Source of the DNA: Eledone cirrhosa
Taxonomy: Eukaryota
Assembly (NCBI GenBank): GCA_964016885.1
Contig: OZ024745.1
Location: 43,586,001-43,650,000 of the forward strand
Direction of reading: 5' to 3'
DNA: 64,000 nt
Positions 1 to 40,462 of this stretch are shown one piece after another. The stretch's first letter is position 1, and every line of letters begins with the position of its first letter. The notes under the pieces are model-generated. The model worked only from the letters and a program-made list of their open reading frames with translations. It made no database searches and was not told the origin of the DNA. A program made the translations under genes and the position numbers.

Positions 1-1122
1 TTTTCTATATACATAGTGTATCTAGAGCTGTATCATCTATTGTGTACCTCTTTTTTAAAACAATAGGTCTGATTTGAGGAATATCTAGCTACTATTTGTA
101 ACAGGTAAATTAACCAAGTAGTGTCTCTCTTATGGGCTTACAATTTTGGTAATTATATTTTTTGATGCTATATAAGTATTTCAGTGGATTGAGTCATTTC
201 TTTATTAGACTCAATGCAAGTATTTTAATAAGTTCGGATTATTGTAGTGTTTTTTATGTAAATGCCAGAACAAATACTAGAATGGCAGGTCTATGAGCCT
301 TTTCAGTCTCCCTGCCATGGTTGAAGGAAAGAGGGAAATCTATCTTTAGACCATAGACATGGTCTAAATGATTGCAACAGAATGTATTCCCCTAGAGACA
401 CCCCTCAGCCAATTGGTAATGTTAAACTCAGCAACAGATTAAGTTTACCAATCCAGATTAGGAATGTTTCATCTAAAAGGCATCCATATAGTTTCTGTCT
501 ACTAAATTTCTCTTACAAAGATTTAGTCAACATGAGTATTTAATAGAAAACACTTGCCCAAGATACCATGCAGTGGGATTGAACCCCAAACCACTGCATA
601 TCATATTAGGTAATTCTCAATGTAACTCAAGGTAACTTTCTAGTTGAAATTACTTCTATTTTTAATTATTTGTGAAAAACACTTTAAAACCACAAAATGT
701 TGCTTTTTTTCATAAGCATAAAGAATGCTCTGGGTAGATGGAACTCATCAGCCTAGGAGGGCAGTCCATCTAAGAGAAGGCAAACTCTGATTTTAAACCT
801 CAGCCTTTTGGCTATACCCAATAGGGAGCAATCTGTATTGACTTAATCTTTCCTTAGTCAATTTTAGTTTTCAGTGAGACGTTTCTTCATTCATTTGTGG
901 TCCTGTATAAACTTAGCAATGTAAAAATTGAGCCAGGCTGGTTCATCTTTGTTATTTGGGGATAACCTGAGCAAAATATTTCTTGAAGTACATAGTAAAT
1001 ACAGGGATTTGTATGAAATTAATAAAGTAAGTAAAAGCTCAAAAGCTGGATCAAAACTAGTTTGTCTTCGTATTAGAAACTATCATCCAACAAACAACAC
1101 TGACCTCTTATGATGATTTCAG

Positions 1123-1234
1123 GCTGATCAAGCACACAGAACGTTTACTGGAGGAGAAGGAAGAGAGATTATGTATCAAGGTACTCCAAACTTTAAAAAA
1201 AATGATGACTGTTGATATCGATTATGGAGAAAAG
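1123..1234 (+). CDS. ITPR: IP3 receptor exon ([37 protein letters not shown]), immediately upstream of the S2/SII site
   Basis: ttcAG acceptor and AAG|GTAAAA donor; matches vertebrate ITPR1 [29 protein letters not shown]...GYGEK. Confidence 0.95.
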
Positions 1235-2979
1235 GTAAAAATAAGTATATTTCATATTATTTATCCATTCTATTTAGTCAGGCAATATCTCTGAATGTTA
1301 TTGAATTCTTGAATTTTTTAAAATATATGTAACAATGTATTTATTAAGTATTCAATACTTTATGACATACATAACACCACAATTGATGGACTGTTGCATT
1401 TCATATGATATTATCATAGGTGTTTCCATCAACATACTCCCTGCTAAAGCAATGAATATAATTCTTCAACTGTATCAAATAGTCTATGTCTGAAAAATAA
1501 TTACCTTACTAACATTTATACTATTTGTCCAAAACTTGTATAGTCTTTCATTTTGTATAGACTCTAATAACTACTAATTTTTCACCACTTTCTTCTTCAT
1601 TTAGGGATTAAGGTATGTTATATACATTGTTAAAGTTCTATTATTATTTTCTCTGATCACAGTTTACTCAAAAGTATACATTTAACCAATCATTACTCTA
1701 CTTTTACCATTTTCTCTCATTGGGTTATCTTACCTCAATTTCATTTTTTATTAGATGAATGACCAATATCTTTTTAGAAATCAAAGTCATATTTTCAACT
1801 ATATTGATGATGATGATGATTGATATCAGATATAAATTCAATCATCTTCAAGTATATCAACTGGACACAACATTATCTAATGTTCCTTTGAAAATAGAGT
1901 GAAGCAATTTGAGCCCCAGGCTAAGCTGGCTCCAGCTAACAGTACCTGAAATGAGGCCCTATCCAGGTTTATGTCTGACATTAAAATGTTGGGTTAGGTT
2001 TCAGCCTGTGAAGGATGGTGTATAGGACTAGTAACCTTACCTCCATTAATCAAAATTGTTACAGAAATGATAAGCAGATACCTGACCTACGAGGCTTGCA
2101 ACCATGCAGAATGGAGATTTCTCATTGCCCAATGCTCCTTGAGGAGCAAGAGGAACTAAAGACGAAGATATCACCTGTTGACAATAAACTTAGAAATAGA
2201 AATTGCAAAAGTTTTTACTGTCATTGTCATTGTAGGATTATACAAGTTTCAATATATCTGATTATTTATTCATTTTATTTGATATCAGTTATGGGGTAAT
2301 GTGGAGAAGGGATTGGATCTGCCAGTTTTAAAGTGCCCAAGACATGCCCAAGACACCCCTATGACTTCATCGGGAGTTATGGGTTCAAACATAAAAATAT
2401 AGGGTAATGGGGAATGTTAGAAAACTCTGCTTAACGATGGTGTTTCAAATAATAGTGTACATAAAGTTGTTAACCTGAATATTCTGAATATATAACTTGA
2501 TTGACCATTAAATAACAAATACAGTTTTGTTATGTTATTTAACCCTAGGTTAACGATAATTGGATACAACTATGTACAAAGACATTCCAGTTATGACATG
2601 ATCATCTCCCATATTATTCAGACTGTATCTAATGTGTCCCACCTTTTTTTAAAGGCAATAGGGTGTAACTTGAAGATTTTTCTGTTATTTTTAGAAGTTT
2701 GGGCAACCATAACAAGTATAGTTATAAGTATATGATGAATTATTTTATTTTTGTTGTAATTTGCAACATAATTAAGGGTTGTGTCTAATAACATTATACA
2801 TATCACCATAGAAAGTATTTGTCCAAGAATGACCCCTTTACTCATTTTAACTCTACTCCAATCACTTTTATTTAAATACATACTGTTTCATTCTGTATTG
2901 CTTCTCTTCAGAGATGATAGCCTCTCTTACAATTTCAACATACTTAAACATATACACGAGATAAACTTTGTCAAATATT

Positions 2980-3110
2980 CAGGCGGTTCACTGGAAGTAG
3001 TAGAAAGCTTTTGTTAAAAAAGAGATCTCATTAGTAGTGGAGGTGAATGTAGTGAAACTGTTATAACCAGAAAGGGGACAGTGTGGAAGAAATTCAGAGC
3101 TGTTATTGGC
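2980..3110 (+). mobile_element. Old degenerate RTE fragment
   Basis: GGSLEVVESF / ISSGGECSE / WKKFR match the RTE ORF. Confidence 0.6.
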
Positions 3111-3469
3111 AGAAATTGAAGCCACAAATACTGCACCTTATCAATAATGTCTAGTGTGCTGGAAAATCACAGGCAAACTGTTGCTCCAAAACTTCCAGAG
3201 ATGCAATGTATTATGTCAACAAAGTAGTGCTGGACCAGCCTTACTACCAAATTGTACTTAAATAATTTAATTAATTCTAAAAGTAAGCTTTTCTTTCCAT
3301 TTTTAGATAATGTGATAAACATCAAATATATATATATTATTTTATAGTGAAAACAAAAATGAATATTGATAGATTAGTTTAAAATTTAAATGAATATGTG
3401 ATTCCAAGACTGCTAAGTCAAGGGGTGATAGTGAAGATAAGCTCTCACTGCTTAAAAAATGCTCCTTGT

Positions 3470-3870
3470 AGCATGTGCCTCAAATAGCAACCTGGCAACC
3501 AAACAACTCCTGGCCTTCTCATGGGGCTTAACATGCAAGCCCGATGGAACTGTCCCTACTGACAGAAAAAGTAGCATAGGTAGGTTCTGGCACCTTCAAA
3601 CCAGTGCCCCAGGTAGATGGAACTCATCAGCCTAGAGGTCAGTCCATCTAAGAGAAGGCAAACTCTGATTTTAAACCTCAGCTGCCTTGTGGCATACTCA
3701 CTAGGGAGTAAACCCGGAGGATAAATCTTGAGTCGGAGTCCCTAAAGCAGTTTGATGTTAGATCCAGCCGGGTTCTGGAAACTCCAATGGCCCCACTGGT
3801 GCCAAGTTGTATTGGCCCATGCCCTTCCCTTGGATAACACTGGTGGTAAGGAAAGGGGAGACGTGTCCAT
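3470..3870 (+). mobile_element. Dispersed repeat, possibly an RTE-type 5' UTR; partial second copy at ~730-830
   Basis: GGTAGATGGAACTCATCAGCCTAG...AGAGAAGGCAAACTCTGATTTTAAACCTCAGC occurs twice; relatively GC-rich. Confidence 0.45.
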
Positions 3871-4248
3871 GAAGACTGTTTCCCCTTTTGTCCCTAGTCT
3901 TTCCAAGCCTGTCTTTTTGCTTTTATGGCTCTATATACCCTACCATTCCACCACCACATCACTTTCCATCTTGCTGGGACCTTGTTCAAATCATATAATC
4001 CATGGCTTTCAGAATCTCAGAGGAATTCCCAATTCCTTTCTTTATACTCTAGGTCTCCATCTTTTCTTACTGTAAGAAGACATCAAGTAGGATTTCTCTG
4101 AATTTGTTCCAGAGAAAAGGTTCTTTCATGTTCTTTCCATGAAGAAACTTAAAATGTTCAATGGATCATGGAGCACTTTTGTTTTCTTTTCATAATGATT
4201 TATAAAATCCCTGTGACTTTTTTATACTTTAAATTTGTTTATTGAATG

Positions 4249-4540
4249 TGAAGGCATGTGGCTTACCGGTTAGGGTATTTGGCTCACAATCATAAGGTCG
4301 TAAGTTCTATTTCCATTACTTCACATCGCTCCAGTCCTCTCAGCTGGCAAAAATGAGTTGTACCTGTAATTCAAAGGACTAGCCTTGTCACATTCTGTGT
4401 TGTTCTTAATCTCTCTGAGAACTAAGTTAAGTGTACTCATGTCTGTGGAATGCTCAGCCACTTATACATTAATTTCATAAGCAGGCTGCTCCATTCAGCA
4501 TATCAACTGGAACACTCGTTGTAACTGACGGAGTGCCAGT
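4249..4540 (+). mobile_element. Older tRNA-derived SINE (related body at ~6100-6410)
   Basis: GAAGGCATGTGGCTTACCGGTTAG head, degenerate B box. Confidence 0.65.
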
Positions 4541-6584
4541 AGATTTTGTTTATTGAATCCATTGGTTATTTATTAATCAGTGAATTAAATTATTACAATA
4601 GAAAATCATTTATTTGTTATATAATGCTAAGTTTCTTCTTTTTTCTTAAGCATCCAATCTACCATGTAAGGTGGTGGTGATGCAGTCATAGCAAAAAACA
4701 CACTGTCCACTCTGTAAATGGGTAGTGTTGGTGTCATGATAAAATGCTCCCAGTATATGCTGAGAGGTGGTTGGCATTAGGAAGGGCATCTAGCTGTAAT
4801 ATGCCAAGCCAAAAACTGAATGCATTAACAAAACAGGGCTCCCTAACTGCTCTGGCTTCAGAATGTGACAACCCAGAAAATAGATATTAGCTGTAATGAT
4901 GACGATGAAAATTGTTCATCTATTTGTATTTTCAGTTTCAATAGCTGAATTTTGACACTTCATTTTGTATCACTGAATAAAATATTTCTTTGAATTATAT
5001 CCACCTTTGTTTACTCTGAATTTTAGCAAGTAATGCTTACTGTGTCAGAGTACAAACTTCAAATTAATGTGTTTCCAATACTCTATAAGTGGCAAATTGA
5101 CAGAATCATTAGAATATCAGATAGAAGGCTTTGTGGTATCCATTGTAGCTCTCTGCACTCTGAGTGCAAATTCCTCTAAAGCCAACTTTGCCTTTCATCC
5201 TTTAAAGATCAATAAAAAAAGTACCAGTCCAGTATTAGTGTCATTCCTTCTTTGTGACTCTTTCACAGTTCCTCTCTCTCACTCTCTCTCCTTCTCAGGA
5301 AGAAATTGGCTGTGTTCAGACATGGAGAAGGATGGACTCCATCAGGAGTCACAGTTCCATAAATACATACACACTCTATATCAAACTAACATTTTAATAT
5401 TTTATTTCAGTGAAATGTCAATAGAATTTCCTCATCTTTAGTATCTATTGCATGACTGTTATACATCAATTAGCCACTGCTCATTATTAATCTTAAATTT
5501 ATTATTTAAAACAGTATATTTCAAATTCTCTTGACATATATCAGAGCTGCTTGATTCATACCTATCTAGTTTAATATATTAGAATAGCATGACATATCTA
5601 GATTAATATATATTGCATGGTATATGACAATGATTTACTATATATAAAGCTGACTTGACATATATTCATTTACAAAATAGCTTAGAGCTATATCTATAAA
5701 ATAGAAATCTGTATAATTTTACAATGATTGTGTAACATTTATTAGAATTAGAAAGATAATATTTTATACTATTAGACCTATCTTTAGTGTTTGTATTTAC
5801 TACACCAGAGTACACTTTGTAAAGTGGTTGGTGGAGAGCATTCAGTCATATAAAACCTGCTAAGGGAAGACTCTTCAGGTGTGTCAAAGACATGATAACC
5901 TCCCCAGTGCCGGTGTCACAATAAAATACACTCAGTAGCATACATGATTGTGTGTCAGATGCAGGCCTCCAGCCTATCTGAGATGTCAGTATAGGTCTAT
6001 TGACAACCCATCCAACTCTTTCTACCAGGGAAAGTGAACAGTAAATTATGATGATGACTATGTTTCGATCAGTTCAATCACCAATCATCAAATACATAGT
6101 TACAGCATTGCTAAATGATAAAGAAGTTTGCTTCATAATCATTAGGTCCCAAGTTAAATCCCACAGCGTGAGCTTCATGGACAAATTTCATTTACTATTG
6201 CTTTGGGTCTAATCATACCTTGTGAAAGAAATTAAGTTAACAGAAAATATGTGGTAGCCCATCAGATGGACTGTGCCTGTAATTTAAACAGGCAGCCTTG
6301 TCACACAATATGTCATGCTGAATCTCCCTGGGAATTATGTTAAAAGTACACATGTCTATGAAATGCTCAGCTACGTACGCATTAGTTTCATGAGCAAGCT
6401 GTTCCATAATGCAATACTTTTCTTTTCCTTTATGGATTTCATTTGTTTGACCAATGCTTTAAAAACTATTTGCCATTCTGAGAAATTAAGTGTTATTAAA
6501 AACAAATGAATATTTGTGTGTGTGTGTGCATATATATATATACAAACAAACATTCATAATTCATATATATATGTGTGTGTGGTG

Positions 6585-6782
6585 TGAGTATAGAAATCCT
6601 ATACAGATAGCTTATAAAATAGGGTGAAGACCCTTAAAAGATGGAAAAAGAAGTTGCCATCAGCTGCTATCTGGAAGATTTGGGGTTCAATTCCACATAG
6701 TGGCCAATAGCAACTTCTTTTTCTGTCTCTTAAGGGTGCTCACCCTATTTTATAAGCTATCTTTATAGCATTTTTGCACTTG
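6585..6782. repeat. Degenerate palindromic MITE-like element
   Basis: AGATAGCTTATAAAATAGGGTGA / TCACCCTATTTTATAAGCTATCT within ~85-bp arms. Confidence 0.75.
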
Positions 6783-8239
6783 AGCACTTTCATTATATTT
6801 ATATATATATATATATATACATATATTCTCAGTGCTACAAAAAGCCAAAAATGTGGCTTCATACATTATATATCATCATCATCATCATCATCATCATTTT
6901 ATGTCTGCTTTTCCCTGCTTACAAGGGTGGGACGGGAACTGCTTCTGGCTTGATTTCTACAGCTGGATGCCCTTCCTGACACCAACCTCATTTCCAGTGA
7001 GTGCTGGGTGCTTTTTTGGCGTGGCACCTCCACGACCACTTTACAGTGGAATGATATGGACCCCAGTCCCTACCATCTCATTTCTACAGCTGAGTAAACT
7101 GGAGCAATGTGAAATAAAGTGTCTTGCTCAAGGAAACAACACATCACCTGGTCTGAGAATTGAACTCACAACCTTTCGATAGGCCAATGCTCTAACCACT
7201 AAGCCACGTGCCTCCATATATATATGTGTGTGTGTGTGTGTGTGCAGAAATAACTGTAACAATAGTTGATATTTATAAGTAGTAGCTTAAAAAATTGGAT
7301 ATTTTACTCGATTTTCTAAGTTATTATTTATAGTGATCAATTGTTGGTACAATTATTTTCTGCATTTGGAATTCATACATTTTCAAATTTCAAATACATT
7401 TATATATGTCAGCCTTATCATTTTACATCAATTTTTCCATGCTTGCATGTGTTGAATAGGTCCTCTCCAGTACAGCCAGTCTCCACTTATTTTCTTTTGT
7501 CATCTCCTTTGTGCGGTTTAGCCTTTTGTGTTTTTATCGGTCTGCTTCTACTGCAGATTCCTTCCATTGGCATTTCCTGGCACTTCTTCATCCATAACCA
7601 TCTCACTCACATACACAAACCATGTCTATCATGCACAATCTCCTATCTTACACACTACAGTTTCTCTCTTAGTTCATTCAACTGAATCTTGACCACTTCT
7701 CTTCAGCCTCTACATATTCTCTAGATTTTCTGACCATGTCTCACAGCCATCACCATGGTACTTCTCACACCAGAATCATACATGTGTATAATGTCCTGTA
7801 TAAAAGTATATTTATACAATTAAAGCATATATTGTAACTATGATGTGAAATGAAACTCCCAGAATAGTTTCAAACTCATTAAGTTTTTGTTGTTTTTGTT
7901 TATTTATGTCAAGAAAATAATGACAAATAGCTATATAGAATACATGTCTTACCTTATGGTTGGATGAGATAGCTTGCATATTGTTCTTAGTTTCGTTAGC
8001 ATTAAGAAATTACTAACACAGCATGAAAATTATAACTCTCTATATATATCAAGATATAATAATTTGTTTAAAATATATGTAGTTTTGCTATGGGATGAAA
8101 CTCAAAGTATTTTCATGCTGTATCAATGTATTTATTGTGTATTTATACATACACACACATACACCTACGTGCACACTCATACACACACACAGTTATACAC
8201 CCATGTTTATACATGCACACACATATGCCCCCCCCCCCC

Positions 8240-8286
<47 letters not shown>

Positions 8287-9051
8287 GGAGAGGTGTATAC
8301 ACATACTGTTTTTCAATAATTTTCAATTTTTGGAAGACCAGTTGTCTTTATAGTTAGATCTTTCTGTGCTAACCAGAGATGGTCAGCTCTTTTTGGGGGG
8401 CTGTTTTTTTTTTCTTTTTTTTTTCTTTTTGTCTGACAAACTGAGACAAGGAAAGCAATGTTCCTTACTCAAGTGTACTGCATAATGGCTCCAGTAATAT
8501 TTGAATTTATGATTATGTAATCAGTAATCCCATACATCGACCTTACAGCCATTGTACCTTTGTAAAATGTATGATTAAAAATGTATGTATGTGCATAAAA
8601 ATATTTTTTACCAACAATTAGTGATGCACAGATTTTCTAAATTTCTCTAATGAGGTGACTGGGAAAGGATTGTAATGCTTGGGGAATCTTGGAACTCCTT
8701 AACAAACCATTGTATATCATCCCATGTAAATTTATGGAAGTTTCTGTGTGTATATATATTTTATGAGTGAATGTGTGTGCTAGATTCATATGTATGATTC
8801 AAATTGTTTCCATGAATGAAGGAACCAATGTGACTGTTCTCGTGCAACTACTAACTGCTTCAGTAAAAAGTGTTGTTTTTCATAAGCTATTTCATTTTTC
8901 CAGTGCCACGCATGTGGAAAGGTTTCTTTCATGAAAACACTCTGTTGAACTATTGTATAAGTGTCCCTTTTCTTCCTAACCTCGTCATTACCTATCCTAT
9001 CCTTCAAACTAATAAACTGTTATACACCTTTCCTTTGCTGCCCATCGTAAG

Positions 9052-9099
9052 GTGGACCTGAAGGCACTTAATAAGACAGAGCTTGATGACCACAGACGG
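9052..9099 (+). CDS. ITPR: Putative 48-nt alternative cassette exon VDLKALNKTELDDHRR (SIIC-like)
   Basis: Pyrimidine tract plus AAG acceptor, strong CGG|GTAAGC donor, phase 0/0 matching both flanking exons; 16 aa ending LDDHRR versus vertebrate SIIC ending LEDHKR. Confidence 0.8.
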
Positions 9100-12000
9100 G
9101 TAAGCTATTGTTGTGTGTTAGCCTTCTTTTGGATGCATGCTATAAACCCTCCTCCCCATATGTTATTTTGTTGTTTATGTTTTTTTTTCCCATTTATAAT
9201 CTTCTATGTTAATCTATTGCTGCATCTTTCCAAACTACCCCATGCTTATTTATGATCATTTACACACCTGACTCCATCTGTCCATTTGATAATTATCTGA
9301 ATAGAAACAACATTTGTTAATTTCACATGATGAATTTTCTACATCTCATCCCATCCTCGATATAAATCCATAATATATACTGTCTAATATATAAATTCAT
9401 AATATATACCATTTAATCTCTCTATTTCAGTATCTTTAAAGGGAAGATAGCCCTTGACATTTCTTAGTGAAAATGAATATATTGTGTAATTGTTTGTTCA
9501 GTATTTAGGATTATTTCTTTACAATCTGAAATATCCCTTTGCATTCCTCTCCTCTGGATTTGATAAGTTCAGTAATATACATGGTCAGTTTGATCAACCA
9601 TATTCTATTCCTTGTGAAAATTGGCTTCAAACATTAATCTTTTCAACAATGTTTTCTATTGAATAAAACCCCATATAATACTGCAATATATGTCTATTAT
9701 AAAGAAAGCCAAAAGGAATAAGAAGTATGTAAAAATGTTGTTAATATTTTAATGAAAACCTTTTTACTTTCTAAGAAACCCTTCTCTAATAAATATAGTC
9801 TGTTAGGATTTTGAATATAATCATCATGAAGTATGTAACTATATTTACCAGATGGAGTCTAGTGGTAACATTTGACATATGCACTTAATGTTGTCTGAGG
9901 TATCTTTAACCAAGGGATATACATGGGGTATTATATAAGTTTGACTCTTTTATTTGAAGTCTTCAATGCCTCATAGTTTTATTTTCACGCATTTTTTTTA
10001 TTTTTTATTAATTAATAAAAATGATGAAATATCTTAGTTTTAGTAAACATTTTTGGGTGTGAACTTTTGTTTTGTGTATATATCTTAATAATTCCCATTT
10101 ACAACTTAAATTCTGGACTGATATATATATTTTTTTTTTTTCTAAAACCATATTTGTTAATGCTACAAAAAAAGTCTTCTGCAGTTATATTTCGATCTGT
10201 TCTTCAGATGGCTTCATGAATTTAATTGATCAGTACTCTATTAAAGTTCAGTTAATTACTGCAAGTGAATATTTCTGTCTATATGTCAGAAAATATTACA
10301 TGCAGCTGCTTCAAGTATATTCTGAATCTAGTTCCCAGATCTGTGTTTTGGAGTTTCAGTGTATCTGTAGTTGGTTATAACATAATGTTGTATTAATTTT
10401 GTGTTTAAGTTTTTCAAAGAAATTGGATTTTTTTTTTTATCAAGCTTCTGTTCTGTGTTTCTTTGAAGCCATAGGTTTTATTATAAAATACACATTTTGA
10501 ATGATGTTTGTTATTTTACTATTTTATTTTATTTGTTTGCTACTAACTTAGAATTTCTGCTCACAATGAAAAATGTGCATTCTAAATATGTAGTTTTACA
10601 TTTTCACCTACATAGAAAAAAATTTATAAAAATAAGAATTTAGTTATTTGCAAATAGAACTTGTGTTTTCTTTAAAATTTAATTTGGAAATGGATGAAAC
10701 TTTTTTTTTTTCAATTTTCATCTATTCCACTTGTTTTTATTTGTTATTAACATTTGATATCGGTAGTTATTACTGAAAGAGCTTGATATTTATTATAATA
10801 CTTTTCACTTATTTTATAGATTTCAATATCTTTTTGGTGTGTTTTTGTTTTGTTTTATGCAGAAAACAATATCTATTGTATGCTGGTTTAATATACATAT
10901 TATCTTCAGAATTTTGCAGGCACAAATTGCTATTAACGGCAATAAAATGTTTGTTATTTATTTTGTATGTAGTATCCAAAGTTTGTTTTTTTTCTTTGGA
11001 TTTTAGAGGTTTCTATACTGGTTCTTTCTCTCTTATATCATAGTTTTATAGTTCGAGATGAAACCAATACATTCTAACAATGGAAGAACTATTAACACTA
11101 AGATTAAGTAATAATTGTTTCTACTTTTGGCACAAGGCCAGCAATTACCCCAGTGTATTACTGGTACTTTATTTTATCGACCCCCGTAAGGATGAAAGGC
11201 AAAGTTAACCTCAAGTTAACTCTTTGCTGCAAAGCATGGCGTCCGACCCTCTTAGTTTAAGCAAACGTTTCTATGTTGTTGCAGCTTGACAAGAAATTTG
11301 ACTTGAAATTGTGTGTTGGAACTAAATTACGTGTCATAATTTATGTCCTATTATTTATTTAAAATACACTTTTATATTTACTTCTTTTTCTCCCCAATAG
11401 TGTATATATTAAGTATCAAAGTTTTTTTTATTGTAAATGTATTATTTACCATCGATACTTCATGATATAGTATCTCCAAAATATTCTATTTAAGTGTTAT
11501 TTACTATTCATTTTTAATCAACAAAATTGAAAAAAAACACTTCATTTCACATTGCTGCTGTATACTCAGCTGAAAATGAGAACCAGCAATAGCTGGGGGT
11601 TTAATTCTGTGTGGGGAGTCTTGTACTCTCAGTTGCTTAACACCATGGAAACCAGGATAAGCACTGGTTTGATGAGCTTCAGGGTTCCAGATAGACTTTA
11701 AACGTTTAGAATCAACAAAATAACTTATCTTTCTTGTTTTCCATGGGTGTATCAACATTAATTTAATAATTGCTTGTCGACTCTAAGATTTCTTTTGTTT
11801 GTTAAATTTACATTATATACAAAATATATAATATAGAAATTTCATTTCAACCTAATTTTAATAAATTATTTACTTCTATTGCTTATGTCAATGTTATATT
11901 GGTTGTTGCTGCTTACAATAGCTCCACACAAAATAACATTTATATTTCAATAAAAATGCTAACCCTTTCATTACCATATTTCTAATGAAATAGCCAACCT

Positions 12001-19858: not shown

Positions 19859-20053
19859 CAAAGTTTGTTTTATGAATATTGACATATCCAGGAACGAGAC
19901 CTTCATAGTTCAAGTTTTACCTGGATAGGTAAAACTTGAACCATGTTTAAAATATATATATATTTATTTTGTTCCTTTACCAGTTTCGCAGTTCTTCTGC
20001 TTTTCAAAAGTAGAGTTGAGATGGAGGGTCTGTGGTTTTTCTCATATGTATAT

Positions 20054-20115
<62 letters not shown>

Positions 20116-20128
20116 GTATATATATGTA

Positions 20129-20259
<131 letters not shown>

Positions 20260-20260
20260 G

Positions 20261-20349
<89 letters not shown>

Positions 20350-20456
20350 GTATGTATATATATATATATGTATGTATATATATGTATATATATATGTATA
20401 TATGTATATATATGTATATATATATATATGTATATATATATGTATGTATGTATGTA

Positions 20457-21313
20457 TCATCATCATCATCATCAGGTTTAGCATCCGTGTTCCACGCTTG
20501 CATGGGTTTGGACGGGGGTTTTCCCACTTGAGGCAAGAGTGGTTGTCTTGCTCGCATAGGACTGTCTGGCGGGTTTTCTACAGTTGGATGCCCTTCCTAA
20601 CACCAACCACATTTACAGTGTGGGGCTGGGAGGTTTTTACCGTGTTGCCTACACGGCCACATTACAGCGTGGACTGTCTGGCGGGTTTTCTACAGCTGGA
20701 TGCCCTTCCTAACACCAACCACATTTACAGTGTGGGGCTGGGAGGTTTTTACCGTGTTGCCTACACGGCCACATTTACAGCGTGGACTGTGTGTTTTTTA
20801 TCGTGACACCTACACGATCTCATTTGTTTCGGCCTGGATGTTGTGGGACCAACATAACTTTACATTGAAAGGGGCGGTGTGGGTGGGGTGGAGGTGGTGG
20901 GACGGGGGTGTGTTTTGATAGAGGTGCCTACTGACTGTAGTAGGTTTTTACTTTGTATTTAGGTAAGGCGGGTCTTCTCTATTACTGAGTACCGCCAAAG
21001 GTCTCGGTCCAGTGACATTGTCTTGGAGAGGTGTAAGCGTGTGAGGTCGGAATTTATCAGCTCGTCCCATGTTTTTCTGGGTCTGCCTACTCCGTGGCTA
21101 CCGTCTATCTTTATTGCCCTGCACTTTGTTATACAGCTGTCGTCTTTCATGCGCATCACGTGACCGTACCAACGTAGCCTTCTCTCGAGTAAACAACATC
21201 TGATCCCTCTTATTTCTAATTTTTTCCTTAGTTCGTTTATGCTTTGCCGTTCACGTATATTACTATTGCACATCCAGCGGAGCATGCAAGCTTCGTTCCT
21301 CTGCAAGCTTCGT
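20457..21313 (-). mobile_element. RTE LINE 3' fragment with ~112-bp tandem duplication in the 3' UTR
   Basis: ORF 20959..21306; block 20559-20670 repeated at 20671-20783; (CAT)n tail. Confidence 0.93.
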
Positions 21314-21362
21314 TTGTATATATATATATGTATGTATGTATGTATGTATATATATATGTATA

Positions 21363-21398
<36 letters not shown>

Positions 21399-21634
21399 TG
21401 TATGTATGTATATATATATGTATGTATATATATATGTATATATATATATATGTATGTATATATATATGTATATATATATATATGTATGTATATATATATG
21501 TATATATATATATGTATATATATATATGTATGTATATATATATGTATATATATATATATGTATGTATATATATATGTATATATATATATATGCATATATG
21601 TATATGTATATATATATATATGTATGTATATGTG

Positions 21635-21671
<37 letters not shown>

Positions 21672-21721
21672 AATAAAGTTAAATAAAAGTCAAATGATTA
21701 AAATTTAGCTTTGTTTATTAC

Positions 21722-21772
21722 TGCTATATATATTTCAGTGACAGCCATCTTTGGCTGTGACCTCTTCAGGCA
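21722..21772 (-). ncRNA. Type I minimal hammerhead motif
   Basis: tgc-CTGAAGA-GGTCACAGCCA aaga TGGCTGTCACT-GAAA-tATATa-TA-gca. Confidence 0.72.
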
Positions 21773-21957
21773 CTTTGAATTAGTATGGTATATACAAGTA
21801 CATATGTTGTTGAGGTGTATAATATTGTCAATACTCTGATATGCCCAGTTCCTTGTTGGGTTATTATTTCACTGAGGAACCCCCCACTCTCCTGAGCATG
21901 AAATTAATAAACATTTATTGTACTGCCTCTCTGTTTTGTCCCTGTTCAAATTTTTTC

Positions 21958-21995
<38 letters not shown>

Positions 21996-22014
21996 GTATA
22001 TATATATGTATATA

Positions 22015-22117
<103 letters not shown>

Positions 22118-22136
22118 GTATATATATATATACATG

Positions 22137-22194
<58 letters not shown>

Positions 22195-22196
22195 TG

Positions 22197-22245
<49 letters not shown>

Positions 22246-22251
22246 GTATAT

Positions 22252-22369
22252 ATAGGAACGAGTAAGACCCCGGCGGCTGAGCTCAAGCCGTTTTGACAGC
22301 TAATTCTGGACTCAGAATTAGCCGTCGAAACGGCTTGAGCTCAGCCGCCGGGGTCTTACTCGTTCCTAT
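22252..22369. repeat. GC-rich foldback hairpin (~57-bp arms, 4-nt loop) followed by a Penelope-type flank to ~22450
   Basis: Near-perfect palindrome; an inverted piece of the flank recurs at 23110-23146. Confidence 0.9.
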
Positions 22370-22628
22370 TACCCACTCTACTAGCCTAAGTATTGAGTAC
22401 TTTGGTGTGTTATGGTCCATCTGGTTCCTTACCACATTTCCTTCGGTTTATGTATATATATGTATATGTATATATATGTATATGTATATATATGCATATA
22501 TATGTATATGTATATATATGTATATATATGTATATGTATGTGTATGTATATATATGTATATGTACGTATATGTATATATATGTATATGTATGTATATATA
22601 TGTATATGTATATGTATATATGTATATG

Positions 22629-22659
<31 letters not shown>

Positions 22660-22690
22660 CTATATGTATATATATATATGTATATATATG

Positions 22691-22721
<31 letters not shown>

Positions 22722-22962
22722 GTATATATATGTATATGTATATATATATAGGTATATATATGTATATATATATATGTGTATATATATATATATGTATATA
22801 TATATGTGTATATATATATATGTATATATATATATGTATATATATATATATGTATATATATATATGTATATATAAATATATGTATATATATGTATGTATA
22901 TATATATATATGTGTGTATATATGTATATATATATATGTGTGTATATATGTATATATATATG

Positions 22963-23025
<63 letters not shown>

Positions 23026-23158
23026 GTATATATGTATATATATATGTATATATATATATGTATATATTTTTTTATATTTATGTATATATATATATATATA
23101 TGTATATATAACGAAGGAAATGTGGTAAGGAACCAGGTGGACCAAAAAAAATATATAC

Positions 23159-23268
<110 letters not shown>

Positions 23269-23285
23269 GTATATATTTTTTTATA

Positions 23286-23346
<61 letters not shown>

Positions 23347-23369
23347 GTATATATTTTTTTATATTTATG

Positions 23370-23400
<31 letters not shown>

Positions 23401-23415
23401 GTATATATATATATG

Positions 23416-23469
<54 letters not shown>

Positions 23470-23565
23470 TGTATGTATATATATACATAAATATATATAT
23501 ACATATATATATATACATAAATATATATATACATATATATATACATAAATATATATATATATATA

Positions 23566-24840
23566 TCATCATCATCATCAACGTTTAACGTCCATGTTCC
23601 ACGCTTGCATGGGTTTGGACGGGGGTAGTCCCACTTGAGGCAAGAGTGATTGTCTTGCTCGCATAGGACTGTCTGGCAGGTTTTCTACAGTTGGATGCCC
23701 TTCCTAACACCAACCACATTTACAGTGTGGGTCTGGGAGGTTTTTACCGTGTTGCCTACGCGGCCACATTACAGCGTGGACTGTGTGTTTTTTTTGTCGT
23801 GACACCTACACAATCTCATTTGTTTCGGCCTGGATGGCGCGGCACCAACATAACTTTACATAGAACGGGGGTGGTGTGGATGGGGTGGGGGTGGTGGTGG
23901 TGGGACGGGGTGTATTTTGTTAGAGATGCCTACTGGCTGGAGTAGGTTTTACTATATATTTAGGTAAGGCGGGTCTTCTCTGTTACTGAGTACCGCCAAA
24001 GGTCTCGGTCCAGTGACATTGTCTTGGAGAGGTGTAAGTGTGTGATGTCGGAGTTTATCAGCTCGTCCCAGGTTTTTCTAGGTCTGCCTATTCCGTGACT
24101 ACCGTCTAGCTTTATTGCCCTGCACTTTGTTATACAGCTATCGACTTTCATGAGCATCACGTGTCCATACCAACGTAGCCTTCTCTCGAGTAAACAACAT
24201 CTGATCCCTCTTATCTCTAATTTTTTCCTTAGTTCGTTTATGCTTTGCCGTTCACATATATTACTGTTACACATCCAGCGGAGCATGCAAGCTTCGTTCC
24301 TCTCTAGTCTGCATATATCCTCTGCACACAATGCCCAGGTCTCACTGCCATGCAACATTGCTGTTCGTATGCAGGCATCGTACAACCTGCCTTTCATTTT
24401 TAGGGAAAACCCTTTAGCAGCTAATAGTGGTATAAGCTCTCTGAACTTTTTCCAACCAGTTCTGACTCTAGCTACAGTACTTTCAGAGCACCCTCCCCCA
24501 CTGCTGATTTTATCGCCCAGGTAACGGAAGCTGTCCACTATTTCTATAGAACCCTCTGCGCAATTGAAAGAGCTAGTATTTTGTGGGCACTTGCTGCTAC
24601 TTATTGCACCAGAACACTGGCCACATGTAAAATCTATGTTCTTAGTTAGCTTACCTGTGATCCCACTACATCTTTTATGCACCCATACTTTGCATTTAGG
24701 ACATAAAATGGAGTTTCTACCTACGCCTTTCCTACACACCGAGCACGACCATTTCCCAGAAGGGACTGCCGCCTTGTTTTCTTTCCTACAAACTAGAACT
24801 TTGGTCTTAGCCAGGTTAATTTTAAGTCCTTTTGACTCTA
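23566..24840 (-). mobile_element. RTE LINE 3' fragment, same family as 42210
   Basis: ORF 23960..24874 nearly identical to 42450..43670; (CAT)n tail at 23566. Confidence 0.95.
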
Positions 24841-24850
24841 TATATATATA

Positions 24851-25336
24851 CTGATAAATTCCGACCTCACACACTTACACCTCACCAAGACAATGTCACT
24901 GGACCGAGACCTTTGGCGGTACTCAGTAATAGAGAAGACACGCCTTACCTAAATACAAAGTAAAACCTACTACAGCCAGTAGGCATCTCTAACAAAATAC
25001 ACCCCCATCCCACCACCCCCACCCTATCCACACCGCCCCTTTCAATGTAAAGTTATGTTGGTGCCACAACATCCAGGCCGAAACAAATGAGATCGTGTAG
25101 GTGTCACGTCAAAAAACACACAGTTCACGCTGTAATGTGCCCGTGTAGGCAACACGGTAAAAACCTCCCAGCCCCACACTGTAAATGTGGTTGGTGTTAG
25201 GAAGGGCATCCAGCTGTAGAAAACCCGCCAGATAGTCCTATGCGAGCAAGATAACCACTCTTGCCTCAAGTGGGAAAACCCCCGTCCAAACCCATGCAAG
25301 CGTGGAACACGGACGTTAAATGATGATGATGATGAT
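24851..25336 (+). mobile_element. RTE LINE 3' end, head-to-head with the 23566..24840 copy
   Basis: Matches 43569-44060; (GAT)n tail. Confidence 0.93.
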
Positions 25337-25384
25337 ACATATATATATACATATATATATATACACATATATATATATATATAC

Positions 25385-25438
<54 letters not shown>

Positions 25439-25460
25439 GTATATACATATATATATACAC

Positions 25461-25493
<33 letters not shown>

Positions 25494-25574
25494 CATATAT
25501 ATATACATATATATATACACATATATATATATGTATATATACATATATATATACACATATATATATACACATAT

Positions 25575-25922
25575 TACATCCCGTCCCACCACCACCACCC
25601 CATCCACACCACCCCGTTCTATGTAAAGTTATGTTGGTGCCGCGCCATCCAGGCTGAAACAAATGAGATCGTGTAGGTGTCACGACAAAAAAACACACAG
25701 TCCACGCTGTAATGTGGCCGTGTAGGCAACACGGTAAAAACCTCCCAGACCCACACTGTAAATGTGGTTGGTGTTAGGAAGGGCATCCAACTGTAGAAAA
25801 CCTGCCAGACAGTCCTATGCGAGCAAGACAATCACTCTTGCCTCAAGTGGGACTACCCCCGTCCAAACCCATGCAAGCGTGGAACACGGACGTTAAACGT
25901 TGATGATGATGATGATGATGAT
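25575..25922 (+). mobile_element. RTE LINE 3' UTR fragment
   Basis: Matches the family 3' UTR; (GAT)n tail. Confidence 0.9.
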
Positions 25923-26068
25923 ATATACATATATATATATATACATATATATACATATATATACATATATATATATATACATATATATTCATATACATAT
26001 ATATATATACATATATATATATATACATATATATTCATATACATATATATATATACATATATATATAC

Positions 26069-26099
<31 letters not shown>

Positions 26100-26120
26100 C
26101 ATATATATATATACATATAC

Positions 26121-26151
<31 letters not shown>

Positions 26152-26186
26152 CATATATATATACATATATATATATATATACATAC

Positions 26187-26241
<55 letters not shown>

Positions 26242-26955
26242 CATATATATATGTACATATATATATGTACATATATATATATATACATATATATATATAC
26301 ATATATATATATGTACATATATATATCTACATATATATATATATACATATATATATATACATATATATATATATACATATATATATATACATATACATAT
26401 ATACAAATTAATATATGATAAACATTAATACAAGTGTTTGTATTGCAAATGACCAAGTTAGCTAGATTGAAAAATACTAATTAAATTAATACAGTTTGCC
26501 TGTCTCGATTTAAAATAATAAATCAATAAAAACAAACCCATATTGGCAATAGCCGTGATACCTGGACAAATTTAAATTTCAAAACTCAAATCTGTTTCAC
26601 AACAATAAGTGAAAATTCCATTTCTGTGCTCAGCTGCAGGTATCCAGAAATTGGTATGTTTCACTTCAAAATACTTAGGAAGACTAAGAGAAAATGTGTT
26701 GTTGAACGCACATGGTGTCCCAGTGTCTAGCCAGTCCTATACTCGTGCCGCTAGAAATAACAGCCGTTTTTATGGGACTAAAAAATTATTCCACGGCTCG
26801 GAAATATCTCTTTCTTTGAGCTATTTAATTGTAAAAGACTGTTTGAGTTTATAACTCTATATATAGTATACATATATATATATATACATATATATATATA
26901 CATATATATATATACATATATATATATACATATATATATATATACATCTTTATAC

Positions 26956-26988
<33 letters not shown>

Positions 26989-27085
26989 CATATATATACA
27001 TATATATATATATACATATATATATATATGCATCTTTATATATATACATGTATATATACATATATATATATACATATATATATAC

Positions 27086-27118
<33 letters not shown>

Positions 27119-27380
27119 CATGTATATGTATATGTATATATATATGCATGTATATATGTATATATATATGCATGTGTATATGTACATATATATGCATGTG
27201 TATATATATATGCATGTATATATGTATATATATATATGCATGTGTATATATATATGCATGCGTATATGTATATATATATGCATGTATATATGTATATATA
27301 TATGCATGTATATATATATGCATGTGTATATGTATATATATATGCATGTATGTATATATGTATATATATATATGCATGTG

Positions 27381-27597
27381 AATGCGTGTGGCTGAGTGGT
27401 TAGAGAATTGGATTCGCAATCGTAAGGTTGTGAGTTCGATTCCTGGACCAGGCGATGCGTTATGTCCTTGAGCAAGACACTTTATTTCACGTTGCTCCTT
27501 CTACCTGGAGTTGCAACCGATAGATAGTATTAGCAATTGGAAAGACCAACGGAAACATTGTTCCCTCGGTCCGATTTGACGAAAGTCGATCGTTCCT
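27381..27597 (+). mobile_element. tRNA-derived SINE; near-identical copy on - at 15686-15905, partial copies ~7062-7216 and ~60085-60198
   Basis: A box TGGCTGAGTGG, B box GTTCGATTCC, central GTCCTTGAGCAAGACACTT. Confidence 0.88.
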
Positions 27598-28141
27598 TTT
27601 ATATATGCATGTATATATGTATATATATATGCATGTATATATGTATATATATATGTATTTATATATGTATATATATATGCATGTATATATGTATATATAT
27701 ATGCATGTATATATGCATATATATATATATGCATGTGTATATGTATATATGTATATGTATATGTGTATATGTATATATGCATGTATATATGGATATGTAT
27801 ATATGCATGTATATATATATGCATGTGTATATATATATGCATGTATATATGTGTATATATATATGCATGTATATATGTATATGGATGTATATATGTATAT
27901 ATATATGCATTTATATATATATATGCATGTATATGTATATATATATATGTATATGTATCTATGTATGTATATATATATGTATATGTATCTATGTATGTAT
28001 ATATATATATATGTATGTATATATATGTATATATGTGTATATGTGTATATGTATGTATATGTATGTATATATATATATATGTATGTATGTATATATATAT
28101 GTATGTATGTATATATGTATGTATGTATATATATATGTATG

Positions 28142-28174
<33 letters not shown>

Positions 28175-28217
28175 GTATATATATGTATGTATGTATATAT
28201 ATGTATGTATGTATATG

Positions 28218-28252
<35 letters not shown>

Positions 28253-29029
28253 TATGTATATGTATATATATGTATGTATATGTATATATATGTATGTATG
28301 TATATATACATATGTATGTATATGTATATATATATATATGTATGTATGTATATGTATATATATATGTATGTATATGTATATATATATATATGTATGTATG
28401 TATGTATGTGTATATATATATGTATGTATGTATGTATATATATATGTATGTATGTATGTATATATATATGTATATGTATGTCTATGTATATATATATATG
28501 TATGTATATATATATATGTATATGTATGTCTATGTATATATATGTATGTATATATATATGTATATGTATGTATATGTATGTATATATGGATATGTATATA
28601 TATGTATATATATGTATATGTATATATATATGTATGTATATGTATATATATATGTATATGTATATATATGTATATATATGTATATGTATATATATGTATA
28701 TGTATATATATGTATATGTATATATATATGTATATGTATATATATGTATATATATGTATATATATGTATATGTATATATATGTATATATATGTATATATA
28801 TGTATATGTATATATATGTATATATATGTATATATATGTATATATATGTATATGTATATATATGTATATATATGTATATGTATATATATGTATATGTATA
28901 TATATGTGTATATATATGTATATATATGTATATGTATATATATGTATATGTATGTATATGTATATATATGTATGTATATATATATATATATATATGTATG
29001 TGTATATATATATATATATATATGTATGT

Positions 29030-29061
<32 letters not shown>

Positions 29062-29134
29062 ATATATATATGTATATATATGTATGTGTATGTGTATATA
29101 TGTATGTATATATGTATGTATATATATATATGTT

Positions 29135-29512
29135 TAATTCTAGGAGAAAGAAAACTCTGATATAACACCTGCAACCCTGATGGTATCCAATGATGTTGAC
29201 TTGTTCTTCTTTTTGGTAAATATCATCGTGGTTAAGAGAGTGGGACTGGCTTTGTGCAGTGCCTTTGCTCACTATAAAAGCTTCACGGCACAGGCATTGC
29301 TTTATATCTGGAGATCTCTCTGCACTTGTCGTCACATGGTACCATGGGCCCAGCACTATGTGTCAATAATTGTCACAAGTGTAGTGTTTGTACCAGAGTT
29401 TTCAAGTCGCTGCCTGGACTAAAAAGTCTCACTCGTTCAGCGCATAGGTAGGGGTTCTCCTACATGGATATAAAGTAGTGGCCGTACTCGAAAACGAGTT
29501 GGCAGCCACCAT
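29135..29512 (+). mobile_element. 3' end of a second LINE family (RTE-like C-terminal zinc finger)
   Basis: Reads [25 protein letters not shown] then a short UTR; embedded in (TA/TATG)n. Confidence 0.6.
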
Positions 29513-29579
29513 ATATGTATGTGTATATATATGTATGTATATGTATGTATATATATATGTATGTATATGTATATGTATG

Positions 29580-29631
<52 letters not shown>

Positions 29632-29647
29632 TATATATATGTATATG

Positions 29648-29679
<32 letters not shown>

Positions 29680-31087
29680 TATATGTATGTATATATATAT
29701 ATATGTATGTATATATGTATGTATATATGTATATGCATATATGTATGTATATGTGTATGTATATATGTATGTATATATGTATGTATATATATATATATAT
29801 GTATATATATATGTATATGTATATATATATGTATATATGTATATGTATATATATATGTATATGTATATATATATGTATATATATATGTATATATATATAT
29901 GTATATATATATGTATATGTATATATGTGTATATATATATACATATACATATAATGTACATATCTATATATAGATATATGTATATATACATATATGTATA
30001 TATACATGTGTTGTATTCATGGCTATGACACTTAGTTGTAAATAGTTACCATGCAAAAACTATTCTCCTCTGTATGAAGATTATTTTGTTAGTTTCCAAT
30101 ACTGAGCTTAAATTCTCTACTGGATAAACCTACAATATTCTGGCATTCTGTTCTAAGTAAAAGTGACTCTCAGTCATTATGAAATCTGCTATAATCTCTA
30201 ACACACTGGAATAGATTCTTGTAATGACTGGATAGTAAGAAAACATGAAACAGAATGATAATCTGATTCCAATTAAGAATATTCTAGACCTAATTGAAAC
30301 ATAAACTAGAATGGTAGAAGAGTCTGTGAAAAAATTGAAATTTTTCTGAGATATCATAAGCACCTATTAAAACTTGAATAGTCACTAAAATTAAATATCA
30401 AATATGTCCAGATTCTTTACTGAATTAACAAGATTCTATCAAATCTAGTAAAATAGAAAATATTATGGAACTGTAATGAGTATGTAAGACATATATTAAG
30501 AATATATGTTTATAATAATATGTGTAAATTATATAATACATTATGATAGAAGCTTAAAGAGATGTATAGGCATCAATCAGATCCTTTAAAGTGTGTTTAA
30601 AAGATCATTAGTATAGTTTGGTATTCTGTTGTGATTTGTTTCTTTTTATTGTGGGTCATTTTGCTTGGTTTTATTTTTGACTGCAAAATATTTACAAAAC
30701 AGTGTAACAATAAACTTTGACATTATTTCAGGTTATTTTATATATTTTATATATTTGAAATTGATATTTTTAACCAAGATGTCATCTTTGACTTCTTAAC
30801 CCTTCATTAACATATTTCTAATGAAAGACACTACCTATGGTTTTCAAATGATTTTGAAAATAATCAAGAAATTGAAGGCATTTAGTAATATCAGTTTCTT
30901 ATTATTAAGCTGGTATTTGGAGTATAACTTGACATAAAATTATGATGAAAAGTTTTTAGATAACTATACAAACTTTAAAACAAACAGCTTTGTATCATAG
31001 AACCAGGGGCTGTTTAGTAATTAGTTAAGTTTCTTGAAATTTCTGTTGTTTCTTCTTTCTTATCAAAACCTTTTCTGATAAAAAAAA

Positions 31088-31453: not shown

Positions 31454-31621
31454 GGTGAGGCTCTACGGCAGAGTTTATTGACAAAATATTATGGCAAAGA
31501 TTATTTTCGAACAAGGCGTGAGAGTATTAATGCCAACTCATCGCAGATTAAAGCTACAGGAATTATTGGGCCTGGTTCTGTTATGGTCAGCCGAGCTGAA
31601 ATGACTCTCCATGAAGTTCAA
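31454..31621 (+). CDS. ITPR: IP3R exon GEALRQSLLTKYYG...RRES...EMTLHEVQ
   Basis: tgcAG / CAA|GTAAGT; GEALRQ motif and RRES PKA-site motif. Confidence 0.95.
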
Positions 31622-40399: not shown

Positions 40400-40462
40400 G
40401 TTGCTGCTATTGTTATGGTGTTTAGGCAGGATATCCTGGATGAAAACTCACAAAAACCCGAG
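40400..40462 (+). CDS. Candidate 63-nt alternative exon VAAIVMVFRQDILDENSQKPE
   Basis: Branch-like CACTAAT, UGC-rich tract, ttcttgCAG acceptor; weak GAG|GTGCCA donor; phase 0/0; TGCATG at 40552. Confidence 0.4.

Follow-up and report, generated by a model that had tools for sequence, protein, structure and literature searches.

An optional 48-nt exon in a cephalopod IP3 receptor gene, probably orthologous to the SIIC segment of vertebrate IP3R1

Splicing of the S2 (SII) segment is usually regarded as a trait of the vertebrate type-1 IP3 receptor. In mammalian IP3R1 it is a classic neuronal trait and alters regulation by PKA (PMC5471599). S2 comprises the 40 residues 1693-1732 of IP3R1, is removed in non-neuronal IP3R1, and abuts the PKA site S1755; the effect of PKA requires S1755 alone in S2+ receptors, whereas both S1589 and S1755 are required in S2- receptors (PMC5471599). 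For mouse, three neural Itpr1 exons are listed, with lengths of 33, 36, and 48 nt; the 48-nt exon also has a 3-nt alternative acceptor (PMC8797185 Table S2). These exons sum to 40 codons, and the 48-nt exon (MmuEX0024736) is therefore taken as SIIC; we infer that the 33-, 36-, and 48(+3)-nt exons together are SII.

Other neural exons provide useful comparisons. The 3′ signature described for neural eMIC exons consists of a long AG-free zone, a CUAAY motif, and UGC near the AG (PMC8797185). The "Neural" group of that study contains exons that are not eMIC-regulated, among them the three mouse Itpr1 exons, and four exon positions are given there as shared between fly and mouse, none in Itpr (PMC8797185). 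In a recent survey, the exons of APBB1/2/3 and MADD are the only ones given as neural and bilaterian-ancestral, and ITPR is absent from its main text (bioRxiv 10.64898/2026.09.05.749416). Two insect reviews refer to one splice site shared between insects and mammals, which lies elsewhere than SII, near Tribolium residues 922-929 (PMC8301844). In the literature searched, which covered few subscription papers, no report of an invertebrate SII or SIIC homologue was found.

The window analyzed here, a stretch of 64,000 nt from Eledone cirrhosa, contains on its + strand the 3′ half of an ITPR (IP3 receptor) gene. Its identity is given by 16-17 exon matches that are collinear and 80-100% identical to Octopus IP3R proteins, by further matches to Argonauta proteins, and by matches to rat IP3R1. 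A constitutive exon at 1123..1234 (+), which ends ...DYGEK and has the phase-0 donor GTAAAA, aligns to rat IP3R1 1655-1692 (E 2.8e-11) and is covered by contigs in three of four runs. The downstream constitutive exon at 31454..31621 (+) starts GEALRQ, aligns to rat IP3R1 1733-1796, and contains an RRES PKA-type motif at 31514-31525 (+) that is equivalent to rat S1755. The flanking exons thus align up to rat residue 1692 and from residue 1733, with phase 0 on both sides, which places the 30.2-kb intron between them (1235-31453) at the vertebrate S2/SII junction.

Within this intron is the cassette exon VDLKALNKTELDDHRR (9052..9099, +; 48 nt, phase 0-0), a probable SIIC orthologue. Its 3′ splice-site region (8962..9051, +) includes an 88-nt AG-exclusion zone, branch-point-like motifs (CTAAC at 8976 and CTAAT at 9009), TGCTGC at 9036-9041, and a weak AAG acceptor at 9049-9051. 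The donor GTAAGC at 9100 opens a conserved stretch of downstream intron (9100..9145, +) with TGCATG at 9134-9139, 35 nt from the cassette. The original prediction had placed the exon, its acceptor and donor, and the TGC and TGCATG motifs at the same positions and had assigned the cassette to the S2/SII junction, and it was correct in both respects; the AG-exclusion zone and the branch-point-like motifs are additional to it. The stretch 8990-9200 has a single match in the genome.

Three other features of the window can be recorded. The same gene has a second cassette at 40400-40462 (+), a 63-nt exon VAAIVMVFRQDILDENSQKPE with a CAG acceptor and several TGC motifs upstream; the identical peptide is present in 10 of 15 listed Octopus proteins and absent in five. 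A 425-codon open frame in an intron (42393-43670, +) resembles a LINE reverse-transcriptase fragment, with the family judged by eye. Approximately 10 kb of the SII intron (20044-30004) is rich in long degenerate TA microsatellite arrays.

Splicing of the cassette was examined in contigs and in public gene models. Twenty-four runs were listed, none on record as RNA, 18 of them guessed to be RNA and all without tissue labels. Contigs of four runs, representing four other organisms, were compared over positions 1000-9400, a stretch upstream of the second constitutive exon that takes in, of the junctions 1234/9052, 9099/31454, and 1234/31454, the first. Run X16 contains a 5941-nt contig (depth 219) in which 1234 is followed directly by 9052, with GT..AG ends; the final 52 letters fall on the cassette, where the contig ends. 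The 1234/9052 junction expected under the original prediction is therefore present in a related species. In runs X1 and X8, a contig of 5220 nt breaks off at 1234/1235, which is expected at a splice fork, where two paths part. Unspliced contigs that align from 8964 are found in X1 and X3, and position 9134-9139 is unchanged in both, among the differences listed. Over 8964-9145, the X3 contig has four differences from the window in 182 nt. For the constitutive exon, the contigs of the other three runs show 8-9 differences in ~110 nt, which is a rough comparison only, made across different organisms.

Gene models of Octopus supply both splice forms. Among the 15 listed members of a cluster of 23, the identical 16-residue peptide is carried by 11 proteins (O. 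sinensis, O. vulgaris, and O. bimaculoides); three of the other four have no insert and one has only a different 15-residue cassette. Both cassettes occur in six of the 11 proteins, with the 15-mer preceding the 16-mer. No copy of the 15-residue cassette of O. sinensis was found in the window intron, where the best match has 5/6 residues and none has splice sites. The cassette had been called hidden and possibly missed by gene models, a claim that fails, since models of all three Octopus species carry the peptide at 16/16 residues. Because the exon is already in public gene models, its novelty lies in its homology and age rather than in its annotation. With an inclusion junction in a contig and with included and skipped forms in the models, 9052-9099 is almost certainly a real alternative exon.

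The similarity of the cassette to SIIC was assessed against the remainder of the intron. An ungapped alignment with the commonest end of 120 amniote inserts has 6/16 identities; these inserts come from a homologue search with bird ITPR1 that returned amniotes only, and fish, lamprey, ITPR2, and ITPR3 lie outside its survey. When all 15,019 stop-free 16-codon windows of the intron were ranked by similarity to bird SIIC, the cassette was first, with a score of 26 against 20 for the runner-up (shuffle p ~5e-4). It was also first among 1254 in-frame AG..GT candidates by a splice-site score, which is crude and has weights set by hand. The cassette thus exceeds chance on two independent counts. The candidate ranked second by splice-site score (4651-4665) was rejected because it sits at the edge of a dispersed repeat with very high contig depth. 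A phmmer search of PDB sequences with the cassette and the 12 codons before it gave 0 matches, with a query that is too short.

C-like inserts are widely distributed. A broad search of 119 proteins, in which the insert-class profile includes its own members, yielded 25 with a C-like insert, 57 with none, 32 with another insert, and five that were unparsed. C-like inserts are present in nemerteans, the brachiopod Lingula, gastropods, bivalves, a chiton, spiders, Limulus, mites, and damselflies, and among deuterostomes in hemichordates, starfish, urchins, and amphioxus. Across these phyla, the optional matching segment at the SII junction spans 15-19 residues. Both forms occur in the models of 14 groups, a tally of gene models that draws on no more than 15 listed members of each cluster; the groups include Octopus, pulmonates, Haliotis, Mercenaria, Babylonia, Lineus, and Liolophura, and likewise amphioxus, spiders, Limulus, damselflies, urchin, Patiria, and Ptychodera. 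C-like inserts were not seen in the models of holometabolous insects or Macrostomum, nor in those of Littorina (0/5), Patella (0/4), the single Argonauta, or two siboglinid annelids, where missing from a model does not mean missing from a genome.

A profile built from 18 protostome inserts chosen by eye was used to score deuterostomes independently. Ambulacrarians score 23-26, amphioxus 22, and four vertebrate SIIC ends 19-29, all with shuffle p <= 3e-4; two SIIA pieces reach -4 and -1. When every 12-mer of a whole chain (~2,600-2,700) is ranked with this protostome-only profile, the SIIC end comes first in each of the two vertebrate proteins tested. Invertebrate deuterostomes and vertebrates also share a Q where most protostomes carry an E. 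The cassette agrees with SIIC in position, phase, length (48 nt, 16 residues), and place as the last SII cassette, and its similarity exceeds chance and is bridged by intermediates; models of Octopus, Mercenaria, and amphioxus have the order A then C. By these comparisons, the cassette is very probably orthologous to vertebrate SIIC. The exon likely dates to the protostome-deuterostome ancestor, from which molluscs, spiders, starfish, and humans all descend, and it may predate Nephrozoa.

Two further observations concern inserts at this site. Hymenopteran inserts of 36-39 residues have profile scores of at most 11; five of these (P0329, P0334, P0345, P0350, and P0367; 37-39 residues) end M-T-Q-x-x-R, possibly a decayed trace of the C core, and the four that were scored gave 5-11. 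The SII intron (1235-31453 in the window) is also a hot spot of lineage-specific extra cassettes in Octopus, bivalves, amphioxus, urchins, snails, wasps, and ants. These cassettes (in proteins P0304, P0452, P0496, P0524, P0537, P0323, and P0293) are unrelated to each other and to vertebrate SIIA.

Genomic copies extend the comparison beyond gene models. Among eight metagenome loci, four contain the exon (L003, L004, L005, and L007), two are too short upstream (L002 and L006), and two (L008/L009, one divergent gene) are without it. The divergent IP3R gene (L008:1375-1865, L009:2266-2756) has an intron of 179 nt at the same position, with an AAG acceptor and no cassette; it cannot serve as an outgroup. 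The four other genomic copies differ from the window mostly at third codon positions.

Splice-site architecture is shared among the five genomic copies, the window included: 48 nt, an AAG acceptor, and a GTAAG donor are present in 5/5. By comparison, every constitutive acceptor examined in this gene of the window (10 of 10) is either CAG or TAG, which makes the AAG unusual. The AG-exclusion zones of the five copies span 25-122 nt, and TGC lies within 25 nt of the acceptor in four; L004 is without a nearby TGC. In the window, TGC is located at -16 and -13 and YTRAY at -76 and -43 relative to the acceptor, and of the intron's 1246 AG-to-AG gaps, 33 reach the length of the 88-nt zone. A weak-acceptor, skip-by-default design therefore looks conserved in sequence, whatever the activating factor may be. 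The window copy alone has a perfect donor-like GTAAG at 9047-9051 that overlaps the acceptor AG and may act as a decoy; the other four copies are without it.

The original prediction had read the UGC motifs as a mark of SRRM3/4-type neural microexons and TGCATG as an RBFOX enhancer. The window carries the cis signature of eMIC exons, with UGC near a weak 3′ splice site, a long AG-exclusion zone, and a CUAAY branch point. This much fits SRRM3/4-type control, which is only suggestive, and the reading is weakened because the mouse 48-nt exon is listed as neural yet not eMIC-regulated. A search of the species' own genome for PF15230 gave no match and was uninformative, since controls likewise gave none. 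TGC occurs in the intron at 11 per kb and TGCATG in 33 copies, 22 of them in a microsatellite tract beyond 27,000; because both are common, TGC plus TGCATG alone is weak evidence. The TGCATG of the window, a candidate RBFOX site, is kept in two related organisms. Of the five copies, one has this motif less than 100 nt from its donor: it is found at +35 in the window and at +109 and +470 in two loci, and is absent within 500 nt in two others. By these sequence comparisons, the putative RBFOX site does not appear to be conserved in position.

Several other origins for the cassette can be weighed against ancient orthology. With 1254 short open AG..GT units in the intron, an in-frame stretch that is never spliced might arise by chance. 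This explanation has a negligible probability and is refuted by the junction contig and the identical peptide in models of three Octopus species; the conserved copies at four other loci, with mostly third-position changes, also argue against it. A more serious alternative is that an old intron gained short cassettes repeatedly, which came to resemble one another because selection favored a helix N-cap ahead of GEALRQ. Position alone is little proof of homology, because the SII intron hosts many unrelated cassettes (32/119 proteins). Convergence could also accommodate identities to vertebrate SIIC of only 5-6 of 16 and the variation in length from 15 to 19 residues in invertebrate deuterostomes. 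Selection for the same helix cap, however, would have to explain why 25 unrelated inserts at the same site score only -15 to +11 with the profile, whereas SIIC-like inserts score 19-39. It would also have to account for sequences that grade along the tree via hemichordates, echinoderms, and amphioxus, and for the 16 codons common to mouse, lophotrochozoan, and spider versions. Convergence is thus improbable, and of the two origins that the original prediction had left side by side, ancestral or convergent, the profile scores, cross-phylum inserts, and genomic copies strongly favor ancestry.

Even if the exon is ancient and orthologous to SIIC, its inclusion in invertebrates could be broad or non-neural, so that neural restriction would be a vertebrate novelty. 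Most listed models contain the exon (full-length Haliotis 13/14, Ptychodera 8/10), but model counts are not tissue levels. A 20-species survey inferred 270 vertebrate gains and traced only two neural exons back to the bilaterian ancestor (bioRxiv 10.64898/2026.09.05.749416). That survey demanded an insect exon, however, and most insects sampled here are without a C-like insert. We infer neural inclusion in invertebrates solely from orthology and the 3′ splice-site signature; this signature matches that described for neural eMIC exons (PMC8797185), which argues against broad inclusion. We consider broad or non-neural use unlikely, though a more credible competitor than convergence, and enrichment of the cassette in cephalopod neural tissue is somewhat more probable than its absence.

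AlphaFold2 predictions for both splice forms of the O. sinensis region suggest how the insert might act, at a confidence that is low to moderate (pTM 0.43 and 0.55, with and without the cassette). When the cassette is present, a helix is predicted from cassette residue 8 into GEALRQ, through GEALRQSLLTKYY (H138-159, pLDDT 62-70), and it starts directly after the conserved T/S/N position of the cassette. In the skip form, the predicted helix starts at E-K (H129-143, pLDDT 49-54). The models fit a cassette that provides an N-cap and about two added turns for the next helix. Structure comparison matched IP3R chains (Z 10-12) and gives no residue-level view of the cassette. A basic-basic-x-S/T motif is located within 30 residues downstream in nine of 10 proteins sampled. 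A helix and PKA mechanism for the cassette is tentative, at somewhat less than even chances.

The explanation we prefer, and judge fairly probable as a whole, is that 9052-9099 is an optional cephalopod IP3R exon of common ancestry with SIIC, likely mainly neuronal, that is predicted to lengthen a helix just upstream of a PKA-type site. The weak AAG acceptor would lead to skipping by default, and a neural factor, for which eMIC/Srrm234 is one candidate, would promote inclusion through the AG-free zone, branch points, and UGC motifs. The conserved core [LM]-[TSN]-x-x-[EQ]-x-[ED]-D-x-x-R could then supply the helix N-cap and approximately two extra turns on the GEALRQ helix. Inclusion might reposition or order the loop with the PKA-type site, like the functional effect of mammalian S2, and by analogy with S2+ IP3R1 might change the choice of PKA sites controlling gating. 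A longer helix upstream of this site would thereby tune cAMP control of calcium release.

A broader proposal, which we hold with even confidence, is that SIIC is among the oldest neural splice switches. It would have been neural since the protostome-deuterostome ancestor, would have kept its AAG acceptor and helix cap, would set PKA control of calcium release, and would be a third bilaterian-ancestral neural exon beside those of APBB and MADD. How old the exon is bears on the age of neural splicing programs; most of the insects sampled seem to have lost it or to carry a strongly altered form. Should part C be ancestral, the last 10-12 residues of the 40-residue insert, and not the disordered A part, would be its conserved functional core and a precise target for mutagenesis; invertebrate C-only isoforms would offer a minimal natural comparison.

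Like the cassette, the Drosophila Itpr 27-nt eMIC exon (DmeEX0004837) is an invertebrate IP3R cassette and is neural in fly, but it occupies a different site, which we take to be the Tribolium 922-929 site. The APBB1/2/3 (6 nt) and MADD (9 nt) exons are, like the cassette, optional, in-frame, present in protostomes and deuterostomes, and located in signaling proteins. The cassette is much longer, has a recognizable peptide, and was not detected in the holometabolous insect proteins sampled; moreover, the APBB and MADD exons are neural in the survey, whereas neural inclusion of the cassette outside vertebrates is a prediction. With eMIC (Srrm234 / SRRM3/4) neural microexons, the cassette shares the weak 3′ splice site, long AG-exclusion zone, CUAAY, UGC near the acceptor, and highly conserved flanks. 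It differs in its length (48 nt versus a 31-nt fly median), strong donor, very long flanking introns, and a mouse counterpart that is classed as non-eMIC.

Compared with vertebrate SII, the cassette is without an SIIA homologue, and the 15-residue cassette of O. sinensis is unrelated to SIIA. The skip form reads D-Y-G-E-K-G, and D/E-Y-G-[ED]-K-G is found in eight invertebrates sampled, where skipping in vertebrates gives G-Y-G-E-K-G. The latter sequence in S2- IP3R1 is presumably the ATP-binding motif, which therefore would not form on skipping in the cephalopod. Neuron-specific inclusion has been shown for vertebrate SIIC only. As in vertebrate SII, an unrelated A-type cassette may precede the C cassette in Octopus, bivalves, and amphioxus. 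Vertebrate SIIC and the cassette both have 16 codons in phase 0, are optional, and end in L-[DE]-D-H-[RK]-R, followed by an RRES PKA-type motif.
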